From the NCBI RefSeq assembly GCF_000341395.1, contig NC_020304.1, positions 1,350,001 to 1,382,000 of the forward strand: DNA of 32,000 nucleotides, written 5' to 3'. Within the stretch, counting starts at the first letter, position 1. Each line of letters begins with the position of its first letter. Below the pieces are notes generated by a model that searched no databases, had not been told where the DNA came from, and saw only the letters and a list, made by a program, of their open reading frames with translations. The DNA comes from Desulfocapsa sulfexigens DSM 10523 (lineage in GTDB: Bacteria; Desulfobacterota; Desulfobulbia; Desulfobulbales; Desulfocapsaceae). The position numbers were made by a program, and so were the translations under genes. This document shows, piece after piece, positions 3,286 through 30,016 of the stretch.

Positions 3286-3336
3286 AGAAAAAGGGGTTGG
3301 AATTACAGGGAAAAACGAATTGTACGGAGGGGGATT

Positions 3337-3374
3337 GCTTAAAGAATAGACAGGCTGCTGTCTATTCTTTAAGC
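3337..3374 (-). terminator. Perfect 17-bp stem / 4-nt loop hairpin overlapping the response-regulator stop codon (terminator/insulator, or activator binding site)
   Basis: GCTTAAAGAATAGACAG-GCTG... pairs perfectly over 17 bp; I paired it by hand. It lies between the regulator stop (3369-3371) and the sigma-54 promoter. No clear U-tract follows on the minus strand, so the function is ambiguous. Confidence 0.4.
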
Positions 3375-7076: not shown

Positions 7077-7317
7077 AGAAAGACACCATTGGGCATTTCA
7101 GCCCTTTGCAAGAAAAAGAATCTGAAACTGAATTCTATGAGAAATTTCGAGACAAGTATACAAATAATAACTAGGTGTCACTGTTGTCTCTCAAATTCTA
7201 CTGGTACCAAAATACATTACCCAGTCAGATAATTCTTGGCTACGCTGACATGTTTGCGGCCATAATTCATTAGACCCTCCACTCCTGATAATGGCTTCAG
7301 TGGCAATAATTTAAGTC

Positions 7318-7355
7318 AAAAAAAAAACGGGTAATTGCACTGATACAATTACCCG
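7318..7355 (-). terminator. Rho-independent terminator downstream of the hsp20 pair
   Basis: CGGGTAATTG (7328-7337) pairs with CAATTACCCG (7346-7355) across an 8-nt loop. On the minus strand the hairpin is followed by a run of 10 T (revcomp of A-run 7318-7327). Confidence 0.7.
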
Positions 7356-7414
7356 ATTTTGCTTTACCTCGTATTTTCTAGAGGTTTCTGGCAAAGCTCT
7401 GTTGTCCGTATTCG

Positions 7415-7801
7415 TTATGCTGATCGTATTTCAATAGTTCTGGGCATAGCAGCCTCGGCCTTTGGTAAATGAAGTTTAAGGGTTCCGTCTTTGAGTTCAG
7501 CATTTACTTTTGCAACATCGATTGTTTGAGGTACCGAAAACACTCGTTTGTATTCAACATCATAAAACTCTTGCCAGGTTTCGACTCCCTTCCTTTGCAG
7601 GTTTCTGACACCTGAAATTTCCAGTTTTCCATTATCTACATTTACTGAAATTTTATCTTTCGTTACACCTGGCATATCAGCATGGAGCAATATCTCTTCA
7701 TCATTTTCATATATATCCACTACAGGGGCAATAGTCGCCAGATCTTGCTGTTTTTCGACCATATTCTCTGTTCTTTTTGTGATTTCCATGTTTTTATTCA
7801 T
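7415..7801 (-). CDS. Small heat-shock protein, Hsp20/alpha-crystallin family
   Basis: 128 aa. The alpha-crystallin domain pattern is present (DIYENDEEILLHADMPGV.KD.I.V.V..G.L.ISG ... F.R.F.VP..ID...V.A.LKDGTLKL.LPK). GGAGG RBS. Confidence 0.9.
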   Translation of the reverse strand: MNKNMEITKRTENMVEKQQDLATIAPVVDIYENDEEILLHADMPGVTKDKISVNVDNGKLEISGVRNLQRKGVETWQEFYDVEYKRVFSVPQTIDVAKVNAELKDGTLKLHLPKAEAAMPRTIEIRSA

Positions 7802-7844
7802 TATTTTACCTCCAATAACTCATGATATAGATAAAATGAACTCC

Positions 7845-8273
7845 TTAGTTGATAGTAATCTGTTTGGGTTTAGCAGATTCTGCTTTAGGAAGTACCAGCG
7901 TTAACAGACCATCTTTCAAGACTGCGTCAATCTTATCAGCGTCAACGTCAGCGGCAAGAGTAAAACTACGCGTAAATGTAGATAAATTACGCTCGACTCT
8001 ATGAGTTTTATATCCTTCAGGGGCATCGGATTTTCGGGTGCCGCTTATTTCGAGGTAGTTACCTTGGATCCTGATATTTAGATCTTCTTTATTGACCCCA
8101 GGAACCTCTGCAATCATCTGAAATGAATCCCCATTGTCATACATGTTCGTTTTAGGGAAGCCGCCTGCAACCCTCCAGCCTGAACTTTCACCATAGGACC
8201 GGTCAGAGTTAATTGAACGAAGCAGATCCATAGCGGAAAACATACGATCAATATCATTCATTCTTGTCCACAT
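7845..8273 (-). CDS. Small heat-shock protein, Hsp20/alpha-crystallin family (second, tandem copy)
   Basis: 142 aa: ...FQMIAEVPGVNKEDLNIRIQGNYLEISGTRK ... F.RSFTL...VD.DKI.A.LKDGLLTLVLPK. GGAGG RBS 7 nt upstream of the ATG. Confidence 0.9.
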   Translation of the reverse strand: MWTRMNDIDRMFSAMDLLRSINSDRSYGESSGWRVAGGFPKTNMYDNGDSFQMIAEVPGVNKEDLNIRIQGNYLEISGTRKSDAPEGYKTHRVERNLSTFTRSFTLAADVDADKIDAVLKDGLLTLVLPKAESAKPKQITIN

Positions 8274-8307
8274 AACTGTACCTCCTTTTTCAGTTGCTCT
8301 TTTTTGC

Positions 8308-8325
8308 CGCTGCTTCTAAGCAGCG
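8308..8325. promoter_or_regulatory. 18-bp near-perfect palindrome CGCTGCTT-CT-AAGCAGCG in the hsp20 leader/promoter region
   Basis: 8+8 complementary bases with a 2-nt centre, 35-52 nt upstream of the hsp20 ATG (8273). It does not match the CIRCE consensus. The function is not established. Confidence 0.3.
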
Positions 8326-8496
8326 CAGGTGTTTACATTTTATAGCTTATGTTTTTAATGAAATACCAAGCTCATGTGGCATTGTTCTTACACTATCATT
8401 GCTCTTTGACCCAAAAATAAATACGGTGAGTTTCTGTGTCAATACTGTGGAAAATATTTTTTGCATTAACCTTAAAAATTACTTTAAAGGCTGCAG

Positions 8497-8525
8497 TTGA
8501 CAAAGTAATATCCGCTCGGTATTTT
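8497..8525 (+). promoter_or_regulatory. Candidate sigma-70 promoter for the 195-aa ORF
   Basis: TTGACA (8497-8502), a 17-nt spacer, then TATTTT (8520-8525). AAGGAGG follows at 8533-8539 and the ATG at 8546. Confidence 0.4.
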
Positions 8526-8545
8526 TGTAAGAAAGGAGGTTTGAA

Positions 8546-9133
8546 ATGAATGACAAGAGCAAATTAAGTCTTTTGGAACAGTCGAGGATTTCTTTTGAAG
8601 ATCTAAGGATGAAACAATCTGTTCGGACTACATTCAAATTGCCAGAGGAAGTTATTGCCTTACTTGGCATAATTGCAGCTCAGTTGGGTATTAAACAGAA
8701 ATCTCTTCTCGACCAGTTAACTGAAGATTCCAGATTGCTCTTTAAGTTAGCCAAAGAGGTGAATACAACCACCAGTGGCAAAGAAAAGCGCCAGGCGAAG
8801 ACGTTTGTAATCAGTAGAAGTTCTCTGAACTCAATTAACGAGGTGGCTAAAAAGCAGAAGGTTCCTCGAGATATACTTGTGGAAATATCTATAAAACGAT
8901 TGTTGCCAATTATTGAAGGAGAACTCGAAAAACACATTAAGAGAAAGCAGATCCTTGAGGAAATGAAAGAGTTCGTTGAGCAAGGTGAAACACTTCGAGA
9001 TCAAGCCAGACAGGCGCTAGGTGAAAATGACGATATTTATGAGATGATTGATGGACAGATCCAATTGGCTAAGAAAAATCTCACGACAGTCAAAGGTATA
9101 ATAAAGAAAGGGATGCCCATGGAAGATTGGTAA
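8546..9133 (+). CDS. Hypothetical protein; two ribbon-helix-helix-like segments followed by a charged helical tail (putative DNA-binding regulator)
   Basis: 195 aa with a strong RBS. Two segments have a strand-helix-helix pattern: VRTTFKLPEEVIALLGIIAAQLGIKQKSLLDQL and KTFVISRSSLNSINEVAKKQKVPRDILVEISIKRL. The fold assignment comes from reading the sequence only. Confidence 0.6.
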   Translation: MNDKSKLSLLEQSRISFEDLRMKQSVRTTFKLPEEVIALLGIIAAQLGIKQKSLLDQLTEDSRLLFKLAKEVNTTTSGKEKRQAKTFVISRSSLNSINEVAKKQKVPRDILVEISIKRLLPIIEGELEKHIKRKQILEEMKEFVEQGETLRDQARQALGENDDIYEMIDGQIQLAKKNLTTVKGIIKKGMPMEDW

Positions 9134-9217
9134 GATTTGGCGTGTTGCTCTTGATAGCCAGTGATAGGGTATAGTAATACAAAATTAAACTATACGATAC
9201 TTTTCCATTATGTTATA

Positions 9218-9244
9218 AATCAATAATTTAATTGATTATATAAT
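9218..9244 (+). promoter_or_regulatory. Palindromic operator-like site abutting a perfect -10 box upstream of the giant helicase gene
   Basis: AATCAAT (9218-9224), a 6-nt spacer, then ATTGATT (9231-9237), followed by TATAAT at 9239-9244. No good -35 is present. The ATG is at 9281 with an AAGGAA RBS. Confidence 0.35.
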
Positions 9245-9280
9245 GCCTGTTTTGGTTACGATGATTTCCAAGGAATAGGG

Positions 9281-12200
9281 ATGCCCAACAATAGCCAGGA
9301 ATTTCTTGCCCGTTGTCTCTTGTTTGATATTGAAACAAATGAGAACGGTGAGATATATGCCTTGGGCGCGTCTTTTAGTGGCAAAAAGTTTAATACCCGA
9401 CAAGGGCAGAAGGTAACGCTCCACCAACTGGCAGAGTTTGACGATTTTGGTCGCAATGCTGAGTTTGTTGTTGGCCACAATGTCCTGGCACATGATATCC
9501 CATTTCTTCGTGAACAAGATTCTTCACTGTCAATCCTGCAGAAGCCGGTAATTGATACTCTTTATCTTTCCCCTTTGGCTTTTCCAGAAAATCCCTATCA
9601 TCGATTAGTTAAAAATTACCAGATAGTCAGAGACAGTATCAACGATCCTGCAGAAGATGCTGTGCTGGCTGGCAGGGTCTTTACTGAACAGTGGGATGCC
9701 TTTTCTCAGCGGCTTAAGAGTGGATCTGATGCCCCGTTGATTTACAGAAGTTTTTTTCAAAAGGACGAAAAGTTTGTCGGCACATCTGATGCTCTTGGAG
9801 CAATGGGTGTGCCTCTTATTGAGGAAGATGAACTTTATGAAGTTTTTTCCTGGTTGGTTCAGAAGGATGTCTGTGGGGAAGCTTTGGAAAGACTTGTTGA
9901 TCAACTCGTTGATCAACGAATTGAGCATCCTCCATTAGCCTATGTCACTGCCTGGTTGACAGTTTCCGGGAGTAATTCGGTTCTTCCACCATGGGTCCGG
10001 CATCATTTTCCTGTAGTACCCACTCTCATCCATCAGTTACGAGAACAGCCTTGCAAGAATTCTCAATGTATCTATTGCAGCACAAATCATAACCCCCAGT
10101 TATTTCTAAAGAATTATTTCGGTTTTGAAGATTTCCGGTCACAACCCGCAACCGAGGATGGTCAAAGCCTGCAAGAGGCTATTGTAACAACTGGTGCTCG
10201 CAATTCTACTCTTTTTGCTACGTTACCTACGGGTGGCGGGAAGACTCTTTGTTATCAATTGCCTGCATTGATGCGGTATCGTCGAAGCAATGCATTGACT
10301 GTCGTCATCTCACCTTTGCAGGCCCTGATGAAAGACCAGGTGGACAACTTCACAAAACAGACTGGTAGTACATTGGCCACAGCCATAAATGGTATGCTGA
10401 CCATGCCTGAAAGAGGCGAGATTATGGACGGGGTCAGATTGGGTGATGTGGGGATTCTGTACGTCTCGCCGGAACAGCTGCGCAATAAATCGTTTGTCCA
10501 AACCATTAGTCAACGTGAGATCGGTGCCTGGGTCTTTGATGAAGCGCATTGTCTGTCCAAGTGGGGCCATGACTTCCGTCCTGATTATCTCTACTCTATT
10601 CGTTTTATCAGGGAATTTTCCCAGCAGGAAAAAACGAAAATCCCACCTGTTCAGTGTTTTACTGCCACAGCCAAGAAAGATGTACAATCAGAGATTATCG
10701 ATATTATTGGGCGAGAACTTGGCCTGCGGGTCATTCAATTTGCTGGAGGGCATGAGCGACAGAATCTCCACTATGAAGTATGGCCAGTAGATACCTATGA
10801 AAAGAATCAAACCATCCTGACGCTACTCAAAACCCGGTATGATAACAAAGGTAGTGTGGTCATCTACTGTGCTACCCGTAAGAACACTGAAAACCTGGCT
10901 GAGTTTTTGGCTAATGCAGGCTATACGGTGGAGGCTTTTCATGCTGGCCTTGAACCCTTTGTCAAAAAACGCATCCAAAACGATTTCATTGCTGGCGAAA
11001 TTCCCATTATCTGTGCCACTAACGCCTTTGGTATGGGCATTGACAAAGATGATGTCCGATTGGTCATCCATGCCGATATACCAGGCTCTTTAGAGAACTA
11101 TCTTCAGGAAGCTGGGCGTGCAGGACGAGACCGCAATGAGGCTGAGTGTATCCTGATTTTCACAGAGCAGGACGTTGAGGGCCAGTTTCGCATGAGCAGC
11201 AACTCGCGTTTGACTCAAAGGGAGATCGGTCAGATTTTACGTGGCCTGCGCCATTCTGCCAAGGAAGATGGAAAAGTAGTGTTGACCTCCGGGGAAATTC
11301 TCAGGCTCGGAGTTGTGGACATCGATGAGGATGAATTTGGCCAAGATAGGGATACCAGAGTTAAGACAGCAGTTTCTTGGTTGGAGAGGACAGGCTTTCT
11401 GAATCGAGATGAGAATAACACCAGGGTGTTTCAGGGAAAGCCTCTTGTCCGCAATATTGAAGAAGCCAGGGAGAAGATAGAAGAACTTGATCTTTCCAGC
11501 AGACAACAGAAACGTTGGCTTGCTATTCTTGCTACCCTGATGGAAAGCCCTCCCAGTCAGGGGTTTAGTGCTGACGATCTGGCCTGCCTGACTTCCTTTG
11601 CTCGCACTTCCGATGATCCTGAAAGCGAAACCGAAACTCAACGTGTGTTGCGTACTCTCAACGATATGGCAGAACAGGGCCTGCTCTCAAAAGAGACTAT
11701 CCTCTCAGCCTATGTCCGTTATAAGGTTAAAGGGAGCTCTGAGAAACTACTCAAACGTTTTTGTCAGGTGGAAAAAGATTTTCTGAAAATACTCGAGGAA
11801 ATATCACCAGATGTAGATCTTGATAAAAACCTGGTGATAGATCTCCGGCAGGTCAATCAGCGTCTTATCGACTTGGGCCATGACTATAGTACACCAAGCA
11901 GTTTAAGCCTGGTGCTCCGAGGTTTGAGCCGTGACGGTAAGGGCTTGGCAGGTCAGAGGGGGAGTATCAGTATTAAATCCAGAGGGAATAATCTCTTTTC
12001 CATCATGCTCCACCGGGATTGGGAATCTTTGAAAAAGACGGTAGCCATCCGGCAGCAGGCAGCCCATGTGGCTCTGCAGATTATTCAGGCCCCTTTGACA
12101 GATAAGATCTCTCCCAATGCCTCTCTTCTTTTGGAATTCACTCTTGAGGCAATTGTTGAAGGATTAAAAAGAGATCTGGTCCTCTTTTCTGCACTCAAAG

Positions 12201-14452
12201 ATCCGTTGGCTGCAGCGGAACGAGCTTTAACCTTCATGCATGAGCAGGGGGTGATTGAACTGCAACAAGGGCTGGCGGTGTTCAGGCAGGCTATGACTAT
12301 CACCATCAATCCAGAGTCCAAGGGTAAGCAATACACAAAGGCTAACTTTGAACCGTTAAAGACTCACTACTCAGAAAAGAACTTTCAGGTCCACGTAATA
12401 AATGAGTATGCCAGGTGTGCCATAAATAAGATCAGCGTGGCTATGAACCTGGTGCACTCATACTTTAATGATGAAAAGGAAGAATTTGTAAGCCGCTTTT
12501 TTCCTGGTAAGGAGGAGTTACTGGAAAGAGCTACCAGTGAACAATCGTATCAGCGAATTGTGGAGGATTTAAACAACCGAGCGCAAGAGGAAATTGTCTC
12601 CGCACCAACTGATAATAACGTCTTGATATTGGCTGGACCGGGAGCTGGTAAAACCAGAACAGTGGCACATCGAGTAGCCTTTTTGCTGAGAGTCAAAAGG
12701 GTTCGACCTGAGGCTATTCTAGTGCTCTGTTTTAATCGGAGTGCAGCGATGGGTCTACGCCGAAGACTGCGGGAACTGGTTGGGAAAGAGATGGCTTGGG
12801 TCACAACGCTAACTTTCCATGGTCTGGCCTTGAGACTGACTGGTAGGTCTCTCGTCAGGCAGACAACCGAGGTACCTCAAGAAGGAATTGACTTTTCTCA
12901 AGTCATCCAAGATGCCATTGCCTTACTCAAGGGAGAGTGCGATGTCCTTGGTTTTGTAGATGGTCAACCAAGAGATGAGCTGATGTCCAGATTCAGTCAT
13001 ATTCTTGTAGATGAGTATCAAGATATTGACGAGGAACAGTATGAGTTGGTTTCATTGTTGGCAGGAAGGACTTTAGATGAAAAGGAACAGAAACTGACTA
13101 TCTTGGCAGTTGGGGATGACGATCAAAATATCTATCGATTTCGGGGGGCAAATGTTGATTTTATTCGACGTTTCAAGGCAGATTACAAGGCGAATGTCCA
13201 CTATTTGACCGAAAACTACAGATCCTCGGTGAATATCATAGCAGCAGCCAATGGACTCATTGTTCACAACCAAGATAGGATGAAGACAGAGCATCCTATT
13301 CAAATTAACAGGGCAAGGGCTACATTACCTCCAGGTGGAAACTGGCAACTCAGTGACCAGGTTGGGCAGGGGAAGGTTCAGTGTCTTCATGTCAAAAATA
13401 AGGTCACACAGGCCCTTGTCCTTTTCGAAGAGTTGCAGCGTTTGCAAAGCCTCAGTAGTGATTTTGATTTGAATGGATGTGCAATATTGGCCAGGGAATG
13501 GCAGGAGTTGGATGTCATCCGCTCGGTCTTTGAGGCAGAGGGAATTCCTGTAAGTCTTAATTGGGGCAGGAGTGCCTTCCCAGGTTTGGCACGTATTAGA
13601 GAAAATGCTGACTTATTAACCTTTCTTCACAATTGCAGCTTAGAACAGATTACGGCAAAATCACTTTTGGATCTTCTGCCCGAGAAAGGATTAAACGAAA
13701 ATATTTGGCAGGCGAACTTGAGGACCTTGATTGGTGAGTGGCTGGATGAAACAAACAATACTCCGCAACCGATTGGACGAGTAGAGAGCTACTTTTATGA
13801 GGCTTTGGCGGATCAGCATCGCTCAAGAAATCTGGATAATGGTATCTTTCTTTCCACGGTTCACTCAATAAAGGGATTGGAGTTTGACCATGTCTTTGTT
13901 CTGGATGGCAGTTGGCAGAATAAACTTGGTCCAGAGATGGAAGAAGAGCGCAGGCTTTATTATGTGGCCATGTCCAGAGCCCGAGAGACCTTGCAACTTT
14001 TTGCAATTGAGAATTCGCAGAATCCACATATCAAAACTCTGGATGGTGATTTTCTGATTTCCAGAAGGGTCGTTCCTTCTCACAAGGTTCCGCGAATGGT
14101 TCCGCATTATGAATTACTGGGTATGAAAGATCTTTTTATTGATTTTGCGGGGTTTAAAAAAGAAAATGACCCTACCTGCAGGGTCATTAAGGAACTTAAG
14201 ATGGGAGACAGTCTGACAGTAAGGAGGGGAAACAAGTATCTGCACCTTTTTAATCATGTAGGAATCCCGGTGGCCCGTCTTTCGAAAACGGCCCAGGAAA
14301 GATGGCAAAATCGTTTGAATAGTGTCAGCCAAATAAAGGTTGTTGCTTTGGCCAGACGGTACAAGACGGACATCAAGGATCAGGAATATCAAAAAAGATG
14401 TCAAAGTGACAGTTGGGAAGTACCTATTGTTGAGCTCAGTTATTTTGATTAA
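9281..14452 (+). CDS. Giant multidomain protein: DnaQ-like DEDD 3'-5' exonuclease + RecQ-family helicase core + UvrD/PcrA-family helicase + unassigned C-terminal ~100 aa
   Basis: A single uninterrupted 1,723-aa ORF. Exonuclease motifs are LLFDIETN (nt ~9320-9340), VVGHNVLAHDIPFL and NDPAEDAVLAGRVF. RecQ motifs are LPTGGGKT (nt ~10224-10247), VISPLQALMKDQV, VFDEAHCLSKWGHDFRPDY (DEAH at 10538-10549), CFTATA, ATNAFGMGIDKDDVRLVIH and QEAGRAGRD. UvrD motifs are AGPGAGKT (12635-12655), VDEYQDID (13007-13024), AVGDDDQNIYRFRGA, TENYRSS, STVHSIKGLEFDHVFV and YYVAMSRARETL. Confidence 0.9.
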   Translation: MPNNSQEFLARCLLFDIETNENGEIYALGASFSGKKFNTRQGQKVTLHQLAEFDDFGRNAEFVVGHNVLAHDIPFLREQDSSLSILQKPVIDTLYLSPLAFPENPYHRLVKNYQIVRDSINDPAEDAVLAGRVFTEQWDAFSQRLKSGSDAPLIYRSFFQKDEKFVGTSDALGAMGVPLIEEDELYEVFSWLVQKDVCGEALERLVDQLVDQRIEHPPLAYVTAWLTVSGSNSVLPPWVRHHFPVVPTLIHQLREQPCKNSQCIYCSTNHNPQLFLKNYFGFEDFRSQPATEDGQSLQEAIVTTGARNSTLFATLPTGGGKTLCYQLPALMRYRRSNALTVVISPLQALMKDQVDNFTKQTGSTLATAINGMLTMPERGEIMDGVRLGDVGILYVSPEQLRNKSFVQTISQREIGAWVFDEAHCLSKWGHDFRPDYLYSIRFIREFSQQEKTKIPPVQCFTATAKKDVQSEIIDIIGRELGLRVIQFAGGHERQNLHYEVWPVDTYEKNQTILTLLKTRYDNKGSVVIYCATRKNTENLAEFLANAGYTVEAFHAGLEPFVKKRIQNDFIAGEIPIICATNAFGMGIDKDDVRLVIHADIPGSLENYLQEAGRAGRDRNEAECILIFTEQDVEGQFRMSSNSRLTQREIGQILRGLRHSAKEDGKVVLTSGEILRLGVVDIDEDEFGQDRDTRVKTAVSWLERTGFLNRDENNTRVFQGKPLVRNIEEAREKIEELDLSSRQQKRWLAILATLMESPPSQGFSADDLACLTSFARTSDDPESETETQRVLRTLNDMAEQGLLSKETILSAYVRYKVKGSSEKLLKRFCQVEKDFLKILEEISPDVDLDKNLVIDLRQVNQRLIDLGHDYSTPSSLSLVLRGLSRDGKGLAGQRGSISIKSRGNNLFSIMLHRDWESLKKTVAIRQQAAHVALQIIQAPLTDKISPNASLLLEFTLEAIVEGLKRDLVLFSALKDPLAAAERALTFMHEQGVIELQQGLAVFRQAMTITINPESKGKQYTKANFEPLKTHYSEKNFQVHVINEYARCAINKISVAMNLVHSYFNDEKEEFVSRFFPGKEELLERATSEQSYQRIVEDLNNRAQEEIVSAPTDNNVLILAGPGAGKTRTVAHRVAFLLRVKRVRPEAILVLCFNRSAAMGLRRRLRELVGKEMAWVTTLTFHGLALRLTGRSLVRQTTEVPQEGIDFSQVIQDAIALLKGECDVLGFVDGQPRDELMSRFSHILVDEYQDIDEEQYELVSLLAGRTLDEKEQKLTILAVGDDDQNIYRFRGANVDFIRRFKADYKANVHYLTENYRSSVNIIAAANGLIVHNQDRMKTEHPIQINRARATLPPGGNWQLSDQVGQGKVQCLHVKNKVTQALVLFEELQRLQSLSSDFDLNGCAILAREWQELDVIRSVFEAEGIPVSLNWGRSAFPGLARIRENADLLTFLHNCSLEQITAKSLLDLLPEKGLNENIWQANLRTLIGEWLDETNNTPQPIGRVESYFYEALADQHRSRNLDNGIFLSTVHSIKGLEFDHVFVLDGSWQNKLGPEMEEERRLYYVAMSRARETLQLFAIENSQNPHIKTLDGDFLISRRVVPSHKVPRMVPHYELLGMKDLFIDFAGFKKENDPTCRVIKELKMGDSLTVRRGNKYLHLFNHVGIPVARLSKTAQERWQNRLNSVSQIKVVALARRYKTDIKDQEYQKRCQSDSWEVPIVELSYFD

Positions 14453-14483
14453 AAATGGGACTGCATCAGGACCTTTTTTTTAT

Positions 14484-14512
14484 AACCTGATTACCATCGA
14501 AACTCAGCTTTG
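14484..14512. repeat. Left arm of a perfect 29-bp inverted repeat (AACCTGATTACCATCGAAACTCAGCTTTG)
   Basis: It is the exact reverse complement of 16273-16301, compared by hand. A T8 run lies just upstream. Confidence 0.95.
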
Positions 14513-14684
14513 CAACCCGGAGCTGTTCCGTGCCCATATAATCAACACGAAACAACTCTTCCTCAGGCGGGTAGGCTGAGGATCAGTGGCAATTGGGTTT
14601 TATAATGTAGAAATGGTTCTCTTCGTATGAACAGTATCTTTTGTTTCTTAAGTGGAATCGCTACTGTTTTCTTACTCTAGCCAT

Positions 14685-16235
14685 TCAGCTCCTTTTCTTG
14701 CCCCCGGAAGCGAGCGTCTGAAACTCAGGACTCGTGATGTCGGTGCGGCCGAGGCACTCTCGCATGTCCTGCACCAGCCGGCGGACGAGTCCCATGGTCG
14801 GGATGGCATTGGCCGCCAGCAGTGATTTTCTGCGTTTGGGAGAGACGACGATGTCGTAAACATCCGCATCCCAACCGCGCTTGGCGTGGATGCTTACGAT
14901 GTCCGCAGCGAGGATGTCGCTGTGCTTTGTTGGGCGCAGGAATGCTTTCTCCGTAATTGCGATTCGCTCCTTTGAAACGAGTGTTATAATTCGGCGCGTG
15001 AAAATTCCTGGGAGGATGGCGGCATTGAAAAGAAAGCCGCTGCCTAAGACGATCCACACAAATACCGTCTTTATATCGAGATCGATAAACAACGTTGCAA
15101 CGAATCCTGCGCCAAGCGCAAAGGTGACAAAGGATTGCCATGCAAGTTTTCTTGCGTTGCGCGCAGCTGGAAAGTGGTATTCGCGACTGCCATCCGCATG
15201 GTCGATGACGTCGATGCGATGGCCATGGAACTCCTCCTTAGTTCCTTGCCTGGAGGGGTGAAAAAGATCGCGTTCAAATGCAAATTCTTTAACGATGATG
15301 GGTTTTTCGTCCGTTTCGAAGATGGGGACCCCAAATGAAGCGCTGTATGTGTGATCCGTTTGAGCTGAGCTAAGTGTCAACGTCCAGCGAATTTCCGTAC
15401 TTCCTGCATTGCCGCTGTTGTCCTGCGTTGCATCTTTTGGGATGTCAAAGAGAACCGGGATCGTGCTTTCGTGAGGATTGTTGGAAGCGATATCCGTGTA
15501 GATCGTTTTTGTCTCTTCCCAAAGAACACGGTAGGAGCCGAGCGATATGCGGTGAGCCTGGTATCCGGATGAGTGATTAAATTTCGAGCAGCGCAGGGTG
15601 AGTGTAAAGCCCATGTCGCTTGCGAGCTTTTGGGAGACGTTGATAAGGCCCATCAGTTCGTCCCCGGGACTTATGGGAATCTGGTTGAGGACAAGGTTGG
15701 ACGATCCTGTCTTTCGTGCACGGAGTGTGTTCTTCAGAGCATCGAATGTAAGGTACAGCGCTCCGAATCCAAAGCCGATTGACATGAGGATGAGGGCGAT
15801 CATAGGATCAACCGGTGGATCGGTAAGGAGTATGCGCGATGATTGAGAAAATGAGTAGCTGTACAGGATAACAGCAGTAGCGCAAATATTGATAACGCTT
15901 GCGTAAAACCAGTATCCCCGCAGGCTGATCGCTTCGTTTTGACGCGATCGGTTCTCGTTCCAATCGACGCGCCAGCGCCACGGTAAGGCGGGGTGAAGGC
16001 GCTTAAGCTCAGCGTTTTTCCGCCTCTCACGGCGCATGGCGATGAATCCCTTGCGCGAAAAAATTACGGCCAGTGCGCACATGATACTTAAGTAGCCAAA
16101 CGTCGCCATGCTTACGAATTGCCCCGACAGCATTGTCATGAGACATGCAATAGCGGAGGCGATGGAGATCCCTGCGAGGATGATAAGGTAGAGGATGTAG
16201 AAAAAGGTGGAGAGGACGATCATCATATGATCCAT
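14685..16235 (-). CDS. Polytopic membrane protein of unknown function (N-terminal TM bundle, central soluble domain, 2 TM + PH-like C-terminal domain)
   Basis: 516-aa ORF, far more GC-rich than its neighbours. Hydrophobic segments sit at about aa 5-60, 105-125, 145-170 and 375-420. The C-terminus (2 TM followed by RRIITLVSKERIAITEKAFLRPTKH...IVSIHAKRG...DIVV) resembles membrane-flanked bacterial PH (DUF304-type) domains. There is no obvious Shine-Dalgarno sequence. Confidence 0.7.
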   Translation of the reverse strand: MDHMMIVLSTFFYILYLIILAGISIASAIACLMTMLSGQFVSMATFGYLSIMCALAVIFSRKGFIAMRRERRKNAELKRLHPALPWRWRVDWNENRSRQNEAISLRGYWFYASVINICATAVILYSYSFSQSSRILLTDPPVDPMIALILMSIGFGFGALYLTFDALKNTLRARKTGSSNLVLNQIPISPGDELMGLINVSQKLASDMGFTLTLRCSKFNHSSGYQAHRISLGSYRVLWEETKTIYTDIASNNPHESTIPVLFDIPKDATQDNSGNAGSTEIRWTLTLSSAQTDHTYSASFGVPIFETDEKPIIVKEFAFERDLFHPSRQGTKEEFHGHRIDVIDHADGSREYHFPAARNARKLAWQSFVTFALGAGFVATLFIDLDIKTVFVWIVLGSGFLFNAAILPGIFTRRIITLVSKERIAITEKAFLRPTKHSDILAADIVSIHAKRGWDADVYDIVVSPKRRKSLLAANAIPTMGLVRRLVQDMRECLGRTDITSPEFQTLASGGKKRS

Positions 16236-16272
16236 TTACATTTAGAGAAATGCAATTGGGCTAAAAAAGGAA

Positions 16273-16301
16273 CAAAGCTGAGTTTCGATGGTAATCAGGT
16301 T
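16273..16301. repeat. Right arm of the perfect 29-bp inverted repeat (CAAAGCTGAGTTTCGATGGTAATCAGGTT)
   Basis: It is the exact reverse complement of 14484-14512 and is followed by a T7 run. Confidence 0.95.
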
Positions 16302-16410
16302 TTTTTTGCCTTCCCGCTTTGCCAGGGGCAATCGACTTTTAATTCATAACGAAATCTCTTTTTCCACCCTACCTCATAGCACCTCTATTTTACCAGAGAA
16401 AGCAGCATGA

Positions 16411-18801
16411 CTAAAGTGTTGATCTCTTTTTTGATGATGTCGATTTCTTCTTTGTGTAAACAAGAGACAGGATAGCCGGGGCCAGTAAGAAATCGGTAAT
16501 AAGGGCAATCAGTATGGTGGCGGCAACAAGTATCCCTGTGTTCTTATTGAGAGTTAACTTGGATAACATGTTACAGAGAAATCCTCCGGCAAGGACAAAG
16601 GAGGTCACCATCATGGCTCTACCAACACTCTTCAATGTTCTCGCGGTAGCCAAAGCCGGATCGCCGAGCTGATCAAAATATTTTCCGAAGTTGTGAAGAA
16701 AATGAATGGTATCGTCAACCACCAGGCCGATGGTGATACTTCCAATCAGCACCGTTCCCAGATCAAGTGGAATACGAAGCCATCCCATTAACCCTATAAC
16801 CACGATAATCGGAAACAGGTTGGGGATCATACTGAGCAACCCCATACGAAGCTTGCCCAGCATGATAATCATCAGCAGGGAAATCAGTATCAATGCAATA
16901 CTATAGCTGCGGATCATGGTGCTCATGACATTATTGAGTATTTCAACAAAGAGAGCATTGATACCGGTAATCGTTACCGTGCAATCTGGAAAATTCTTGT
17001 GTAATTCCATTTCGATGTCGGCCATAAAATTTTTATATTTTGACGTGTCTCTGTAAGGGACGTGCATGGTAAGTCGTGTCTTGGAAAACTGTTGGTCAAC
17101 AAGTTCATCCAGATCGTCGGAACCACTCAGTTGAAAAAGAAACAATTCCTGGGCTATAAGTTTTCGGTCATCCGGTACGGTGTACATCTCTTGACTGTTC
17201 TCATGTAACGCACGATTGGTTTCTTTAAGGATGGTGATCAGGGACAGGACTTTTCCCACATACAAATCTTCCGTTGTATAATCGGAAAATTTAATCACCG
17301 TCTTTTCAAGTGCCTTGATAAATTCTGAATCGTAGAGACCATCAGCTCTTCCTGTGTCGATAACCACATCAAAAGAGACTGTTCCCCGCATCTGCTGATC
17401 AATAAGTTCGGTGTCTTTTCTGAGTGTAGAATTTTCCGGGAACCATTTCAGGGCATTATGTTCAAAACGTACCTGACTCACACCAATTGCTGCCACGAGC
17501 AGAACGATTGCAAACAGACTTATAACCAAACCCTGACGACAACAGGTCAGCCTGGCGATTCTTTCAAATAGGAGATCGAGCTTCTCTGTGCCACTGCCAT
17601 GAGTCTCTCTTCTTTTTACCGGAAAAATAGCAAACAGGGCTGGAATAAGGAGGATAGTATAAATGAGTGCGAGAAAAACTGCCACGGGAGTCACCACTCC
17701 CAGATCTGCAATTGGGGCGACTTTGGCAGCCATAAATGACACCAATCCCCCAGCTGTTGTCAGAGAGGTCATCAGAATGGGCAACCCGGCATGTTTCATG
17801 GCATGCACTATCGCCTCTTTTTTATCACCTGTCTTGTGATATGCCGGATAAAACAGGGCCATGATGTGCACCGCATCACTGATACTGACAACCAACAAAA
17901 ATGATGGCAGTATGGTGGTGATATTGTTCATCGGGATGTTTAAAAAGCCCATGACCCCGACCGCTGAGAGCAAAGATAAGATAAAGATGAGAAGGGGATA
18001 CATAACCCCTGATATTCTGCGAAAAAGGAGGATGAGAAAGAGAAGCACTATGACAAAGGTGGCCGGGATGATAATTCCAAGATCTTTTTCCAAGGCGAGA
18101 TTTAAGTACTCGATAACTACCGGCATACCTGAAATTGCGATGGAAAAATCCTTTGCGTTGTATTTTTCAAGAATCGGCGTAATGCTTGTTACCATCTCAC
18201 GATTCTGGACATTGGTCATGGGCTGACAAGTTCCCTCTTCAATCAGCCCTGCAGTAATATCCGGATCACACGGTAGAGGCTTGATAACAATAGCTGTCAT
18301 GTCAAGGGCCTCGGTGAGGATGAAATTTTTATAGAGGCTGTTCTTTTGTGCCCGAGCCGTCAGCGTATCCAAGTCGGTTTGATTTTGCGGCCATGTTTCC
18401 AGGAAGTCTTCAACAATAAGCTCATCAGTCTCCCCCCTGGTGTTTCGAATATTTATCAGACTGGTCACTTCATCCAGATAGGGAACATCTGTTTCCAATT
18501 CATGGTGCAGATCTTTTAATCTTGCCAGAAACTCCATGTCAAAAATATTCGGAGTTTGTATTCCAATAACAATAAATTCATCCTTACCGAACTGGTTCCT
18601 GAAAGTATTGTAATCAATCAGCACCCTGTCATCGGGCCTGAAAAATACCTCATTGCTAGTGTCCAACTTGAGGCGTGGAATTTGCGAAATAAGAGGCAAG
18701 ACGATCGTCAGAATCAGAATAAGTGCCAGCCACTTGTTTTCATACGCCCAGCGTGCAATTTTTCCAAACCCTCTTTCACACTTTCTTTTTATCATTTTCA
18801 T
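16411..18801 (-). CDS. MMPL/RND-superfamily transporter (two 6-TM bundles with sterol-sensing-like domain; HpnN/MmpL-like lipid exporter)
   Basis: 796 aa. It shows a duplicated architecture: a TM helix, a large loop and a 5-TM bundle, twice. RND/MMPL-type segments are present (GMPVVIEYLNLALEKD, SISDAVH, GLVVDDTIHFLHNF). Confidence 0.85.
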   Translation of the reverse strand: MKMIKRKCERGFGKIARWAYENKWLALILILTIVLPLISQIPRLKLDTSNEVFFRPDDRVLIDYNTFRNQFGKDEFIVIGIQTPNIFDMEFLARLKDLHHELETDVPYLDEVTSLINIRNTRGETDELIVEDFLETWPQNQTDLDTLTARAQKNSLYKNFILTEALDMTAIVIKPLPCDPDITAGLIEEGTCQPMTNVQNREMVTSITPILEKYNAKDFSIAISGMPVVIEYLNLALEKDLGIIIPATFVIVLLFLILLFRRISGVMYPLLIFILSLLSAVGVMGFLNIPMNNITTILPSFLLVVSISDAVHIMALFYPAYHKTGDKKEAIVHAMKHAGLPILMTSLTTAGGLVSFMAAKVAPIADLGVVTPVAVFLALIYTILLIPALFAIFPVKRRETHGSGTEKLDLLFERIARLTCCRQGLVISLFAIVLLVAAIGVSQVRFEHNALKWFPENSTLRKDTELIDQQMRGTVSFDVVIDTGRADGLYDSEFIKALEKTVIKFSDYTTEDLYVGKVLSLITILKETNRALHENSQEMYTVPDDRKLIAQELFLFQLSGSDDLDELVDQQFSKTRLTMHVPYRDTSKYKNFMADIEMELHKNFPDCTVTITGINALFVEILNNVMSTMIRSYSIALILISLLMIIMLGKLRMGLLSMIPNLFPIIVVIGLMGWLRIPLDLGTVLIGSITIGLVVDDTIHFLHNFGKYFDQLGDPALATARTLKSVGRAMMVTSFVLAGGFLCNMLSKLTLNKNTGILVAATILIALITDFLLAPAILSLVYTKKKSTSSKKRSTL

Positions 18802-21126: not shown

Positions 21127-22305
21127 TCACACCAATTTTTTAAGTATTTTTAAAACAAATGAATATGAGATTCTCTCCTGTTCAAGCCTTAAAGCATCCC
21201 GGAGAAGGTTTTTTACCAGAAACTCATAAATGCCTAGTTCCTTTTCATCAAGGCGAGTCAGGCTCCGTCTTGTAGGTTTACTCTCTTGGCCCCAAAGTGA
21301 TTCATGAGCCATTAGTGTTTCTCTATCCATCAAAAAAGAACTGGCCTGAGGAAAGTAAGAGCGGAGCTGGTCAAGCATTACGTAGCCGTGTGTATCAATA
21401 TCACCCCAGTAATGGATTTTTTTACCCAGTAGCCATTGAATATTGGCCAAACGATCCAGTCCGAACCCCAGTCCAAAGATGATAATTGCGTTTTTCACAT
21501 TTGGAAACGCTAAGCCATTGATTTCATTTTCAGTAATGAAGACATGATCAACTTCCAGGTTCAATGCACAAAACTCGGATACCGGTACATGAAGATCCGA
21601 CAATCCATGAAGATATAGATCAGGATCGAGGATTCGAAAGCGGACCTGAACCGGTTTAGAGAGGAACCCATAACGTTCCTCAAACCTTTTTGCTCCGGTT
21701 GCACTACTCTCGATCATTTCTTTCGACAGAATAAGATCCAGCAACTCACTTAGGGGTTTTTTATGTTTTTCAATGAACTTGGTATCAACTTCAGGAATTT
21801 CCAATTGACGTACATAAATTCCTGGACGAGGATTACTCTTAAGATACTTCAACACAGCCAATAGTCTTGGCCACTGTTTTTGATACTGGAGAGCAACAAG
21901 CGGACGCTTTTCCAGCCAGGACCTCAGTTCTGGGAAATCAGCAAGAATCTGACAGCATAACTCGTCAAATATTCGGGCCGCACTCAGTTTTCCAATGAAC
22001 GAAAGAATGGACTCGTCCGTCTTAAAAAGAACTGCTTGGGGAAAGCTGTTTCGCCCTAACTGACGATGGTTCACTTCCTGTGACTCTATTGTGAAAGCTC
22101 CATGTGTTTCTGCCTCAATCAGTTCATCCACCCATGCCTTTGCAGTATCCCACTTCTCAGCCCACTCATTTCCAAGTGGTCTTTTCAATGTGATTCGCCT
22201 GGGACAGAGATCTTCACCACGTAACCGGGCCGAAAGCAACTTGCCCTGCTCCCACTCCCGCTCGAGCTTCTTTCGTAAATCTTTAATGCTGCTCCAGTTG
22301 CTCAA
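21127..22305 (-). CDS. jetD: Wadjet JetD (DUF3322 + DUF2220/Toprim-like nuclease subunit)
   Basis: 392 aa. The C-terminal HYWGDIDTHGYVMLDQLR is the Toprim-like DxD signature of the JetD/MksG family. It is last in a jetABCD-ordered operon. The apparent TTG start at 22305 overlaps the jetC TGA stop by 4 nt. Confidence 0.85.
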   Translation of the reverse strand: MSNWSSIKDLRKKLEREWEQGKLLSARLRGEDLCPRRITLKRPLGNEWAEKWDTAKAWVDELIEAETHGAFTIESQEVNHRQLGRNSFPQAVLFKTDESILSFIGKLSAARIFDELCCQILADFPELRSWLEKRPLVALQYQKQWPRLLAVLKYLKSNPRPGIYVRQLEIPEVDTKFIEKHKKPLSELLDLILSKEMIESSATGAKRFEERYGFLSKPVQVRFRILDPDLYLHGLSDLHVPVSEFCALNLEVDHVFITENEINGLAFPNVKNAIIIFGLGFGLDRLANIQWLLGKKIHYWGDIDTHGYVMLDQLRSYFPQASSFLMDRETLMAHESLWGQESKPTRRSLTRLDEKELGIYEFLVKNLLRDALRLEQERISYSFVLKILKKLV

Positions 22306-25300
22306 GCCGTCCGTGCCTCTCGAGCGGCTCTCTCTTGCCGATACTCTTCTATGGTGAGGCTTCGTAACTGGGATTCCTGTCCACCCTTATTGTGGACAAA
22401 GCCAACCGAGGAAACATATGGCTCAATGATATGAATTTTCTGCAGAGGAGTGACAATCAGCAATTGTAAATTCAGCTCTTTAAACAACTTAAGGGCGTAT
22501 CTCGTTGACTCATCTGAGCCACGGCCAAAGGCTTCATCAATCACCACGAAACGAAAACTCCTCGATTTTATCTCTCCACGCTCAAGGCCAAATTGATAGG
22601 CAAGACTCGCCGCTAGAACCGTATACGCGAGTTTCTCTTTCTGACCACCGGATTTACCACCGGTATCGGTGTAATGTTCATATTCACTACCATCCTCCTG
22701 ATAACGTTCAGAAGCTGCAAATGTGAACCAGTTACGAACATCCGTAACCTTTTTCATCCACTTTCTATCTAAGTCTATCGAATCAGCTCTGCCCTTAAAA
22801 CGATCTATGAGCTTACTCACCTCAACAAATTTCTTCTCAGCGTACTGCTCGTCCTCAGAACCAGTAACAGTACCCTCAATACAGATACGAAGCTGCTGCT
22901 GAAATTCGCGAATCTCCTGATCTACAGTCTTGGCATTCTCCAACTCTATATACCGTCCAGGGTTGTACTCAATGGTAGCAAGAGACTGGTTAATCTGTTC
23001 AATCCGTTCCTTAATTGTTCGGTTCTGTTTCTCCAGCTGAGCTTGAAATTGAACCACCTCGCGGATCGTATTCTGGTTGAGTAACTCCTTAAACTTCTGT
23101 TCATATTTTGGAAGGTTATCAGCTCTAAGTGCCTCCAGCATCTTTTCATATTCAAAAGCGGCCTCAATGGTTTTATCAACTTCTTGAGTCTCAGCAGGGA
23201 AATCATTGCAATAGGTATGCATCGCCGAAGTGATCTTGACTTCCAGACGCTTGAACCGCTCTGCATTATCATCGATGTGCCGCTTGAACCAAAAACGCAT
23301 CTCCTGTTCATGGTTTTGGCAGGACTCCACGGTTAACTTATGTGGTCCCAGAGCCTCTTCCCTTACCGACTCCAGATAAGAAAACAGCTCCGACCTGACT
23401 GATTCGTCTACACGTTCTATATCTTGTAAACATTGCTTGAGTTCATTCTCTGCCTGGGTCTGCTTTTCTGCAAGAGTAGCCTCCTTGCGAATCAATTCCT
23501 GGTGGTCTCGTTCGGTAGAACGGAGTTCAATCTCCAACTTTTTCAACTGGTCGGTCAGTAGTGCTAATTTGTCAGATGTCGACTCCAGAGCTATCTTCTC
23601 TTGTTTGAGGTTCTCGGCCTTACGTGCATCGCTCTGCCAATCCAGCTCACTGAAATTTGGAAACTCCTCGAGGCGATGCAACTTTTCCAGGACGGTATCA
23701 ACTTTTCTTTTCAACTTTTCAGTTTGAGCAATGTCTCCACCAATATTCTGAATAACCTTTTCACATTTTTCAACATCAACAGTGATGGCTTTAATCTTCT
23801 GCCTGTTATCCCACCCAAGAATATATCGGCTTCGATCACTGAGAAGGTGGCGATCATCTTTTTCATGTCGCCGGCCGCCTGATTTAATCTGTCCAGCCTG
23901 CGTAACAGCCTGCTTTTCTCGACGAAACTGAGAAACATCCTCACAACAAATATAATTAAACCGGTGCACTATTTCATGCTCCAGCCACGAGTAAAACTCT
24001 GACTGTGGCTTAATTGCTATCTTATTTACTAATGATTGTTGTCCACAATCGACTGTCCCAGGAATCTGTTCCGGACGAACCCTATAGTAAACTAACCTGC
24101 CCTTAAGGTGGGTGCTATCAACATACTCGGCCACTCTGGCATAGTGAATCTCCGGGACCAATAATGACAAACCGAAATTGTGGAGAACTCTTTCCGCAGC
24201 ACCTTCCCACTGTTTTTCTTCCTCTTTTATCTGCAGTAACTCACCAATAAAAGGTATATTCTCTTCATCAAGCTGCAGGGCACCACATAAGTCTTTTCGA
24301 ATGCTGATAAGGTTTGCGCTGATATTACTTTGCCTCTGGCGTAATGAATCCAGTTCACGACTGAGCTCCCGATGCTCTTCTCTCTTACGATCAAGTCGTA
24401 CCGCATCTTTTGTTATCGCGTCCTGCAGATCCTTACTTTCCGTATCTTTATCCTTCAATATATCCGGCAGGTGGGAGTTGTTCTCCAGGAATGCCTCTAA
24501 AGATTCAGCCTGTGACAATCCCACGTCAATCACGAGACTTTTGTAACGATCTGACTTCTCTTTTCTTGACCTTTTTCGCTCAAGGACAGCATCGATCTCT
24601 CTTGCAAGTTGCGCCAAACGGTCACCACCGTTTTCAGCGATCGCTTTTGTGAGGGCATCCCGGTTGTTCGCCTGTTCAATTTTTGTCTTTTCGGCCTCGC
24701 CAATCCTATTCTCCAGCCATTTCTTTTCCTCGGAATGTTTCTGCAATCGGGTTTTAAGAAGCTCTGTTTTCAAAGAAGCGAAATAGCCATGCAGCGCCTC
24801 CCGGCAAGAGCGCAGATGTTCATTTTTTTTAACTACCTGCTGATACTCTGTATAATTTTCTACCAGTGGGGAAAGTTGCCGTATCTGCTCCTTGGCCTTA
24901 ATCACCGCATCATGGGCCCGGTTAAGATCATCGTAATGTCCTATAAGGGCGGTGATATCCGACTCTACATCGAATGATTCAAGCATATGTTGACGAACAA
25001 ATTCGGTAAGATTTCCCACTGATTTCATCGAAACAGTTTGATGAAAAAGATCCAAAGCCTGTTCATTCTTAATTCCGAACTGTCTTCTGAATTCGGCACT
25101 ATAGAGAGTGAAGCTATCAAAGATTTCTACACCGCTTTCCTCACGGAGACGTTTGCGCAGGTTGCCAAGATCCGATCCAAAGCCTGAAAAATTATGGGAA
25201 ATTGTCAGTGGCTGCTTAGAAACCACATAATACCTCTCCGGTTGCCCCTGCTTATCCTTGCACCAAAAAACTTGTGCCAGGGTGATTTTCTGATTGTAGC

Positions 25301-29988: not shown

Positions 29989-30016
29989 TCCGTTCATTCG
30001 ACATCTTGAGAAACAG
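29989..30016 (-). pseudogene. 28-nt scrap of a second hsdM copy at the truncation junction of the IS3 remnant
   Basis: 29989-30016 (TCCGTTCATTCGACATCTTGAGAAACAG) aligns with 28547-28574 inside the hsdM N-terminus at 26 of 28 positions. Of these, 18 consecutive positions are identical (29999-30016 = 28557-28574). It encodes LFLKMSNE versus LFLKMSDE. Confidence 0.6.

Follow-up and report, generated by a model that had tools for sequence, protein, structure and literature searches.

Among the described systems that come closest to the locus reported here are the bacterial MITEs, of which the Correia elements of Neisseria and the RUP elements of Streptococcus pneumoniae duplicate TA, and the IS1595 family (DDE_Tnp_IS1595, PF12762), which is related to the eukaryotic Merlin elements and includes members with passenger genes. 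REP elements, which are not known to have target-site duplications or a two-ended element structure, provide a further point of reference. Members of the IS1595 family usually carry flanking 8-bp duplications (PMC8101967).

We analysed a 32,000-nt stretch of the Desulfocapsa sulfexigens DSM 10523 genome (hereafter the window), in which a preliminary description had singled out an exact 29-bp inverted repeat with a single ORF inside it. Both observations were borne out: 14484-14512 (AACCTGATTACCATCGAAACTCAGCTTTG) and 16273-16301 are exact reverse complements over 29 nt (100% complementary), they lie 1760 nt apart, and they enclose one long ORF, 14685-16235, on the minus strand. With up to three mismatches allowed, the 29-mer has only these two copies in the window and was found in none of 100 shuffles. 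Very likely, the two arms derive independently from copies of an IS1595-type MITE end that is abundant in Desulfocapsa and other Desulfobulbaceae. Each arm represents the conserved terminal repeat (CCTGATTACCATCGAAACTCAGC...) that bounds the members of a dispersed MITE family; the two do not belong to a single element as its ends. The portion shared with the family is 27 nt in each arm (CCTGATTACCATCGAAACTCAGCTTTG); the remaining 2 nt are flanking A/T, and the agreement of these two extra bases in each 29-mer is chance. The features of the locus are as follows.

14478-14485, no strand: left copy of the 8-bp target-site duplication TTTTATAA, identical to 14598-14605
14486-14597, plus strand: complete non-coding MITE of 112 bp, subfamily 1, matching the 178-bp consensus
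14486-14512, plus strand: 27-nt left terminal repeat of the MITE, with the same sequence as the ends of dozens of copies at other loci
14575-14597, plus strand: right terminal repeat of the MITE (GCTGAGGATCAGTGGCAATTGGG), an imperfect inverted copy of the left end
14598-14605, no strand: right copy of the target-site duplication TTTTATAA, a perfect 8/8 match to the left copy
14685-16235, minus strand: the single long ORF between the arms, coding for a 516-aa membrane protein whose family is uncharacterised
16273-16299, minus strand: solitary 27-nt MITE/IS1595-type end, inverted, consensus positions 1-27, with nothing more of the element following
16300-16441, no strand: junction zone of T8 (16300-16307) and then about 130 nt of orphan sequence, which supplies the last MMPL codons

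The left arm is part of a complete element in its own right. The 178-bp consensus aligns through its positions 1-47 and 112-178 with 14486-14532 and 14531-14597; compared with the 178-bp form, the 112-bp MITE has lost 66 bp from its interior (consensus positions 48-111/112). It is bounded by CCTGATTACCATCG...CTCAGC and GCTGAG...GGCAATTGGG, contains no ORF and, when folded from 14487, forms a single long hairpin (-37.9 kcal/mol, z = -3.4). At an orthologous locus (L041), the MITE, which at 155-332 provides the 178-bp consensus, has ends that pair by eye at 19 of 25 positions, and this copy shares with the one in the window a right-end variant, ...AATTGGG, where the consensus has ...AATCAGG. The preliminary description had found no flanking direct duplication, which holds for the 1.8-kb unit bounded by the arms but not for the 112-bp element, which has TTTTATAA perfectly duplicated on both sides; the last two bases (AA) of the left TTTTATAA copy are the first two of the 29-nt left arm. 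None of 870 unrelated flank pairs drawn from other copies reached such an 8/8 match. The right TTTTATAA copy opens the 87 bp that separate the element from the ORF. We also weighed a 9-nt direct repeat, GCAATTGGG (14589-14597 and 16252-16260), as a candidate for the second end of an element; L041 and a further orthologous locus, L001, both of which lack the right arm, carry it in conserved form.

A census of the 22-nt arm core yielded 68 copies in 66 loci of Desulfocapsa/Desulfobulbaceae (43 metagenome and 23 MAG loci, with the D. sulfexigens DSM 10523 genome itself left out). A single Desulfobulbaceae MAG contributes 13 of these copies, and a Desulfocapsa MAG another 11. The exact 29-mer had no match in the genome-contig collection, which does not include the D. 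sulfexigens genome. Each census copy has its own outer flank together with a conserved inner sequence, and 16 of the 68 stand at contig ends. Complete copies (38 of the 68, 82-373 bp long) have 8-bp flanks that match at 6 or more of the 8 positions; single elements measure 82-203 bp, and the 373-bp copy is a nested MITE in L065. The target duplications are 85% A+T, with A or T at positions 7 and 8 in 30 of 30 copies. At least five subfamilies have common 23-27-nt ends and unrelated interiors, which indicates that these ends have repeatedly come to flank new DNA. The preliminary description had reasoned that a dispersed, high-copy 29-mer would make the flanking pair coincidental, and this is precisely what the search of relatives turned up. 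Rfam contained nothing relevant to the MITE, a plasmid search gave no match, and a search of the literature on MITEs in Desulfobulbaceae found nothing; the family is apparently undescribed.

The 8-bp length of the duplication fits ends of IS1595 type, and the link to this family is drawn from transposase relics and one IMG/VR contig. At locus L076, a DDE_Tnp_IS1595 fragment (PF12762, 43.4 bits) ends in ...KLAEIRW*, encoded within GCTGAGATTCGATGGTAATCAGG, which differs from the arm by a single mismatch. In L076, L078 and L079, PF12762 transposase genes or fragments have the same end sequence at their termini, and transposase relics in Desulforhopalus terminate in GCTGAGGATTGGTCGTAATCAGA. The identity of the two arms can be put down to an end that is nearly invariant in the family, probably in part because it encodes ...KLAE-x-RW-stop in autonomous elements, and this double use as code for the transposase C-terminus may account for the strong conservation of the end. 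The CCTGATT with which these ends start is presumably the ISfinder consensus for the IS1595 subgroup; a literature search for the end consensus 'CcTGATT' gave no match. A full-length autonomous IS1595 element bounded by exactly these ends was not recovered from Desulfocapsa. Among the loci examined, a search for inverted ends that are spaced by more than 300 bp and flanked by a duplication returned only the nested MITE in L065. Transposases that lie beside some copies belong to other insertion sequences inserted into the MITE (IS110-like in L043, IS21 in L031) and were rejected as its partner.

Comparison with orthologous loci separates the two arms. Both L041 and L001 are 94% identical in DNA to the window, carry the same gene with a MITE adjoining it, and have no right arm. 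In L041, which comes from the 24.8-kb contig JGI11705J14877_10000485, the end of the helicase gene is followed at the same site by a MITE of 178 bp, whose duplication matches at 7 of 8 positions, and then by the same gene, upstream of which stand genes for RhuM, PRiA4_ORF3, DUF6880, NOV_C, a methyltransferase and HsdS. L001 is like L041 on this side, so that the place held by RhuM and type I restriction genes in these two loci is taken in the window by the MMPL operon. The preliminary description had asked whether relatives carry the gene without the repeats and without orientation or occupancy polymorphism: one of the two repeats is indeed absent and no such polymorphism was seen among the window, L041 and L001, but the MITE is kept. 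Searches for inverted repeats flanking homologues of the 516-aa gene found none that were relevant (L001-L004 and L041). A degenerate right arm in L001 or L041 was also considered and rejected, the similarity being at chance level.

The protein encoded by the enclosed gene is predicted to have four transmembrane helices at its N-terminus, followed by an arrestin-like beta-sandwich, a further pair of helices and, at the C-terminus, a beta domain; the structure model built from 40 sequences was good, while one built from 4 sequences was unusable (pLDDT 41). Searches of Pfam, PADLOC, NCBIfam and PDB sequences with the protein gave no match, and an exact-sequence look-up returned no record. The gene has a GC content of 0.522 and a GC3 of 0.611; the 22 remaining ORFs in the window average 0.455 +/- 0.034 and 0.458 +/- 0.077, which puts it about 2 SD above them. 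To call it compositionally foreign was therefore an overstatement of what is a moderate GC-richness, since two further ORFs (299-709 and 28185-28676) are as GC-rich; the three 60-mer G+C counts given in support (39, 21 and 26) are exact. The gene is a resident bystander between the arms rather than the cargo of an element, since it is found in L041 and L001 at 94% DNA identity without the right arm.

The right arm is a stub that sits 37 bp upstream of the 516-aa protein gene, in the orientation opposite to that of the left copy. Homology between the window and both L041 and L001 stops at about 16268-16272, which is the inner edge of the stub. From the other side, homology with the MMPL genes of relatives (74-87% identical) ends at about 16441, after which other genes follow in the relatives: a TP_0789-like partner gene is full-length in L073 and L074, present as a 58-aa fragment in L072 and absent in D. 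sulfexigens. Beyond the stub, a short stretch of orphan sequence leads in D. sulfexigens to an MMPL gene whose 3' end has been replaced. A full MITE that might be the progenitor of the stub was sought downstream of the relatives' MMPL genes without success, homology stopping within the last MMPL codons, and no relative with a full element at the stub position was found among the loci compared. Within the junction zone, 16302-16356 shows a weak, borderline similarity to L001 6970-7025 (64%, E = 0.024), which, if real, would argue for a more complicated history. Truncated ends occur elsewhere, with about 23, 40 and 65 nt retained in L033, L054 and L028, respectively. The end of the stub in the window coincides exactly with the boundary of the module common to all subfamilies; that a random deletion should hit this boundary exactly is luck only, and it counts against a history of truncation.

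In light of these comparisons, the history of the locus can be sketched as follows. By analogy with the family, the gene-less MITEs would be mobilised by an IS1595-family DDE transposase made elsewhere, which would recognise their ends of about 25 bp and insert them into AT-rich 8-bp targets that are duplicated in the process. The complete left copy inserted in the T-rich spacer between the convergent helicase and 516-aa membrane-protein genes, and this insertion predates the split of D. sulfexigens from the L041 organism. The second copy survives as its outermost 27 nt only, exactly at the point where collinearity with relatives stops; deletion or illegitimate recombination would have cut it after position 27 and joined it to the upstream region of the gene.

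There is a small chance that 14486-16299 is instead a composite non-autonomous transposon, in which the membrane-protein gene would travel as a passenger, moved by a transposase supplied in trans. The two arms are true transposase-type ends, identical and facing outward, the subfamilies show that the same 23-27-nt ends can enclose unrelated interiors, the gene exceeds its neighbours in GC by about 2 SD and is preceded by different genes in the three genomes, and passenger genes are known within IS1595. Against this, the outer flanks of the unit, TTTTATAA and TTTTTTTT (16300-16307), agree at only 5 of 8 positions, a level that 19% of unrelated pairs also attain; the left MITE has a second end and a perfect duplication of its own, so that its insertion was a separate event; L041 has the identical helicase/MITE/gene junction without a right arm, which L001 lacks as well; and the homologue loci are free of flanking inverted repeats. 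No duplication encloses the whole unit, nor was the unit seen to be present at one locus and missing from another, or to occupy several sites. The preliminary description, which had proposed as one of three readings a non-autonomous element with terminal inverted repeats and a passenger gene, was right that the arms are terminal repeats of such a family; its treatment of the 1.8 kb as one unit is not supported. Equally improbable, in our judgement, is that we have caught a new cargo-carrying IS1595-type element at its birth, whose whole 1.8-kb segment the cognate transposase could move; if true, the same route may explain how the family has repeatedly gained unrelated interiors.

Two further readings also concern the arms as a pair, and to both we assign even lower probability. 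A perfect inverted repeat with arms 1.8 kb apart has the geometry of an invertible segment, and the gene could be flipped by a site-specific recombinase acting on the repeats, or by homologous recombination between them. This is highly unlikely, because the repeat belongs to a dispersed transposon whose ends recur at dozens of unrelated sites and is not a dedicated recombination site, the window, L041 and L001 all have the gene in one orientation with respect to the MITE, and there is no obvious promoter for inversion to switch. The 23 long ORFs of the window include no recognisable invertase or tyrosine recombinase, and the sole mobile-element enzyme among them is an IS3-type integrase-core protein (30006-30779). 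The least probable reading takes the arms to be the halves of a terminator-like hairpin or REP-type palindrome 3' of the helicase gene, split by an insertion. The arms would pair without the insert and T-runs stand outside both, T8 at 14475-14482 and T8 at 16300-16307 (the latter had been counted as T7 because two T lie inside the right arm). These runs can be explained by the preference for AT-rich targets, to judge from the invariable A or T at target positions 7 and 8. Copies at other loci measure 82-373 bp, have two unlike ends and 8-bp duplications, and are not simple hairpins without duplications; a repeat found at dozens of unrelated sites is not a local terminator, and a terminator scan found nothing at either arm. 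If the MITE is excised precisely at its duplication, the helicase gene and the ORF already adjoin, and L041 has the left arm and the gene without the right arm. The split hairpin is already refuted by L041 and the target duplication. All three readings of the preliminary description fail to find support for the same reason, in that each treats the 1.8 kb as a single unit bounded by the arms.

Taken together, these data describe a new but ordinary MITE family and a truncated copy at a rearrangement junction, not a new type of gene cassette. Their main value is one of correction: a striking perfect inverted repeat round a gene, once said to match no standard annotated feature type, is made of ordinary transposon ends, and both MITEs and IS remnants are standard types. 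No new gene-mobility biology is implied. The family breaks metagenome assemblies and marks rearrangement junctions in a region rich in defence genes, and its annotation would aid strain comparisons of sulfur-disproportionating bacteria.

When set beside known systems, the locus resembles composite transposons and insertion sequences with passenger genes in that two inverted transposase-type ends bracket a gene; it differs from them in that there is no duplication round the 1.8-kb unit and no second copy of it, one arm belongs to a complete smaller element, and the gene in relatives is without the second arm. As with REP/BIME sequences, the repeat is short, conserved, high in copy number and intergenic, has dyad symmetry and often lies by gene ends; unlike them, the MITE copies have target-site duplications and a two-ended structure. 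The 8-bp target duplications (PMC8101967), the closing of PF12762 genes by the same end and presumably the CCTGATT with which the ends start are shared with the IS1595 family, whereas the MITEs in and around the window are without a transposase. The Desulfocapsa family differs from Correia and RUP in its sequence and in its 8-bp duplication, and is otherwise like these bacterial MITEs: its members are small, non-coding and numerous, with terminal inverted repeats, a target duplication of fixed length, a capacity to form hairpins, AT-rich intergenic sites, and several variants of length and interior that have their ends in common.

The 29-nt inverted repeat of the preliminary description is exactly as reported: 14484-14512 (AACCTGATTACCATCGAAACTCAGCTTTG) and 16273-16301 are perfect reverse complements of each other, at a spacing of 1760 nt. 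No other long perfect inverted repeat with distant arms occurs in the 32-kb window, and shuffling the window never reproduced this one. The single ORF said to lie between the arms was likewise confirmed (516 codons, 14685-16235, minus strand), and the three GC counts offered for this region were all exact on recount. The claim of foreign composition held in part: the ORF does stand out, but the contrast is moderate and two other ORFs of the window are as GC-rich. The genome average is 45.4% (PMC3739170).

Base composition of the ORFs in the window
Enclosed ORF: GC 0.522; GC3 0.611
Remaining 22 ORFs: GC 0.455 +/- 0.034; GC3 0.458 +/- 0.077

The arms belong to a family of MITEs (small non-coding mobile elements). 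The middle 22 nt of the arm (CTGATTACCATCGAAACTCAGC) were found in 43 metagenome-contig stretches and 23 stretches of Desulfocapsa/Desulfobulbaceae MAGs. Once all copies are turned the same way, the sequence beyond ...CCTG differs each time and the inward sequence is conserved, which identifies the arm as the end of a repeated element. In its commonest form this is a 178-bp element (CCTGATTACCATCGAAACTCAGCTTTGCAACCCGGAG...GCTGAGGATTAGTGGTAATCAGG) whose terminal inverted repeats are imperfect and whose 8-bp direct target duplication is perfect (for example TAATAATT in comparison locus L005, TAAAGAAA in L015, TTTCCCAA in L017, TAGAGGAA in L022 and AAAAAGAA in L047). In a census of 68 copies, 38 were complete with a flank match of at least 6/8 and 16 ran off a contig end, as expected because the repeat breaks assemblies; the other 14 fit neither class and include some that are truncated or split by another IS. 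At least five subfamilies, 82-203 bp long, have their first 23-27 nt in common, whereas their interiors are unrelated. The A+T content of target sites is 85%, and both positions adjoining CCTG are A/T in 30/30 copies. Individual copies have been altered in several ways: an IS110-family element sits inside that of L043 and an IS21 element (IstA/IstB) inside that of L031, those of L057 and L061 look split by another IS (by eye only), part of the MITE end is duplicated in tandem in L056, L065 has a nested MITE pair, and truncated ends occur in L033, L054 and L028.

A transposase family could be linked to these ends through an IMG/VR contig (L076), in which a transposase frame (...YHSISKKYLPRYLAEFCFRFNWRF...LLKLAEIRW*) terminates within GCTGAGATTCGATGGTAATCAGG, one mismatch away from the arm. 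The peptide matches DDE_Tnp_IS1595 (PF12762) at 43.4 bits (cutoff 27), and its homologues are IS1595-family transposase fragments, including Desulforhopalus and Desulfopila relics that terminate in ...GCTGAGGATTGGTCGTAATCAGA, closely resembling the opposite end of the MITE. The motif CcTGATT is what we take to be the ISfinder end consensus of the IS1595 subgroup. Read in the transposase frame, the arm (AAA GCT GAG TTT CGA TGG TAA) encodes K-A-E-F-R-W-stop, which would give the conservation of the 27 nt a coding explanation in autonomous elements; no full-length autonomous copy with these ends was recovered among the fetched loci. Members of the IS1595 family usually have an 8-bp duplication at their borders (PMC8101967).

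The two arms differ in what they are part of:

14486-14597: complete MITE of 112 bp, the left arm being its first 27 nt
14575-14597: this MITE's own second end
14478-14485 and 14598-14605: perfect target duplication TTTTATAA
16273-16299: right arm, consensus positions 1-27 alone, inverted (the stub)

The left MITE retains consensus positions 1-47 and 112-178 of the 178-bp form, 66 bp (48-111/112) having been deleted internally, and folds as one long hairpin. It stops 87 bp short of the ORF stop codon, so the ORF lies outside it. The 29 nt originally noticed thus comprise 27 nt of element end and two flanking bases, AA on the left, within the 8-bp duplication, and TT on the right, within a T8 run; these agree between the arms because targets are A/T at those positions. 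A 9-nt direct repeat (GCAATTGGG) occurs at the right end of the MITE (14589-14597) and at 16252-16260, 12 nt inside the stub, the latter copy being conserved in the stub-less relatives L041 and L001.

The orthologous locus is found in the metagenome contig JGI11705J14877_10000485 (L041). Its helicase gene is 96% identical to the window over the final 150 nt, and a full 178-bp MITE with the duplication TTTTGTAA/TTTTATAA occupies the same site, followed by the ORF ortholog at 94%; where the right arm would stand, unrelated sequence leads into RhuM, PRiA4_ORF3, DUF6880, NOV_C, methyltransferase and HsdS genes. In the Logan contig L001 the gene is 94% identical to the window and 97.6% to L041, the shared MITE lies downstream of it, with the contig breaking within the MITE, and RhuM/YgjP/HsdR genes lie upstream. 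Neither homologous locus has a right arm. The MITE insertion between the convergent helicase gene and ORF predates the D. sulfexigens/L041 split, and the D. sulfexigens copy differs from its L041 ortholog by the 66-bp deletion. Upstream of the ORF, the second family end marks the exact point at which the window ceases to be collinear with the relatives.

The base directly inward of the stub already belongs to the ORF upstream region, and homology with L041 and L001 ends at 16268-16272, its inner edge. On the other side, homology between the window and the relatives' MMPL genes (74-87% identical) is lost at about 16441, within the final codons; the last ~10 codons (16411-16441) are unrelated to those in L071-L074. 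In relatives MMPL is followed by other genes, including a TP_0789-like partner that is absent in D. sulfexigens; L073 and L074 carry this gene at full length, L072 as a 58-aa fragment. Together, the unrelated codons and the missing partner indicate that the 3' end of the operon was replaced, and the breaks in homology on both sides make 16273-16441 a rearrangement junction with the stub at one edge.

The ORF product belongs to a large family: exhaustive searching with HMMER retrieved 1492 representative proteins at 50% clustering (512 at E <= 1e-10), mostly of 470-600 aa, and its family has no sequence match in Pfam, NCBIfam or the PDB. A confident AlphaFold model from a 40-sequence alignment (pLDDT 86.5, pTM 0.82) predicts four N-terminal transmembrane helices, a beta-sandwich, two more helices and a C-terminal beta domain. 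In structure comparisons the sandwich matches arrestin N-lobes best, those of ARRDC3, TXNIP and VPS26 among them (target-normalised TM-scores up to 0.61, E-values ~1e-4), so that the model would place an arrestin-like beta-sandwich between transmembrane helix pairs. Gene neighbours are defence-type genes in three genomes. The window itself holds a complete four-gene Wadjet-type system (21127-27735, minus strand):

26296-27735, minus strand: DUF3375 (JetA-like)
25679-26332, minus strand: DUF4194/MksE (JetB-like)
22302-25679, minus strand: SMC-like ATPase
21127-22305, minus strand: DUF3322 + JetD_C

The helicase gene (9281-14452, plus strand) encodes a 1723-aa fusion of a DEAD/DpdF-like (PADLOC DpdF, 1e-106) and a UvrD/GajB-like helicase, and is preceded by a 195-aa ORF of no family (8546-9133) and a low-GC stretch (7200-9400, ~0.37-0.39) with two HSP20 genes. 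An N-terminal fragment of the type I methylase HsdM (28185-28676, minus strand, 163 aa), an IS3-type integrase-core ORF (30006-30779, plus strand) and a 28-nt direct repeat linking them (93%; 28547-28574 and 29989-30016) suggest that an IS disrupted a restriction system. Between the multihaem cytochrome and sigma-54 response-regulator genes, at 3336-3375, there is a perfect hairpin (TGCTTAAAGAATAGACAG / CTGTCTATTCTTTAAGCA) with a stem of 18 bp and a loop of 4 nt.

What, then, does the pair of arms represent? The proposal of a terminal-inverted-repeat element with a passenger gene was right about the nature of the arms but not about the unit, since the left MITE is self-contained; moreover, the sequences bordering the 1.8 kb on the outside agree at only 5/8 positions, a level reached by 19% of unrelated pairs, and the relatives show the helicase/MITE/gene arrangement without a second arm. 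We consider it very improbable that the pair of ends has become a mobilisable cargo-carrying element. A gene caught in the loop of a terminator-like hairpin, suggested by the T-runs, is untenable: the helicase gene and ORF are already adjacent once the MITE is removed at its duplication, and the arm is a transposon end and not one side of a local hairpin. Target preference accounts for the T-runs, and the arms carry no predicted terminator. Nothing supports an invertible segment: three genomes have it in identical orientation, and a scan of the 23 long ORFs of the window revealed neither an invertase nor a tyrosine recombinase.

We favour a history in which the stub would be all that is left of a second copy, MITE or IS, truncated by deletion or illegitimate recombination; the same event or events may have removed the RhuM/restriction-island genes and replaced the MMPL 3' end and downstream partner. 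Some doubt is left by the cut of the stub, which coincides exactly with the edge of the module common to all subfamilies, and by a borderline similarity (64%, E = 0.024) between the 55 nt outside the stub and sequence upstream of the gene in L001. The inverted repeat is thus real as sequence and ordinary in meaning: an apparently undescribed IS1595-type MITE family of a well-known kind, together with a solitary end at a rearrangement junction.
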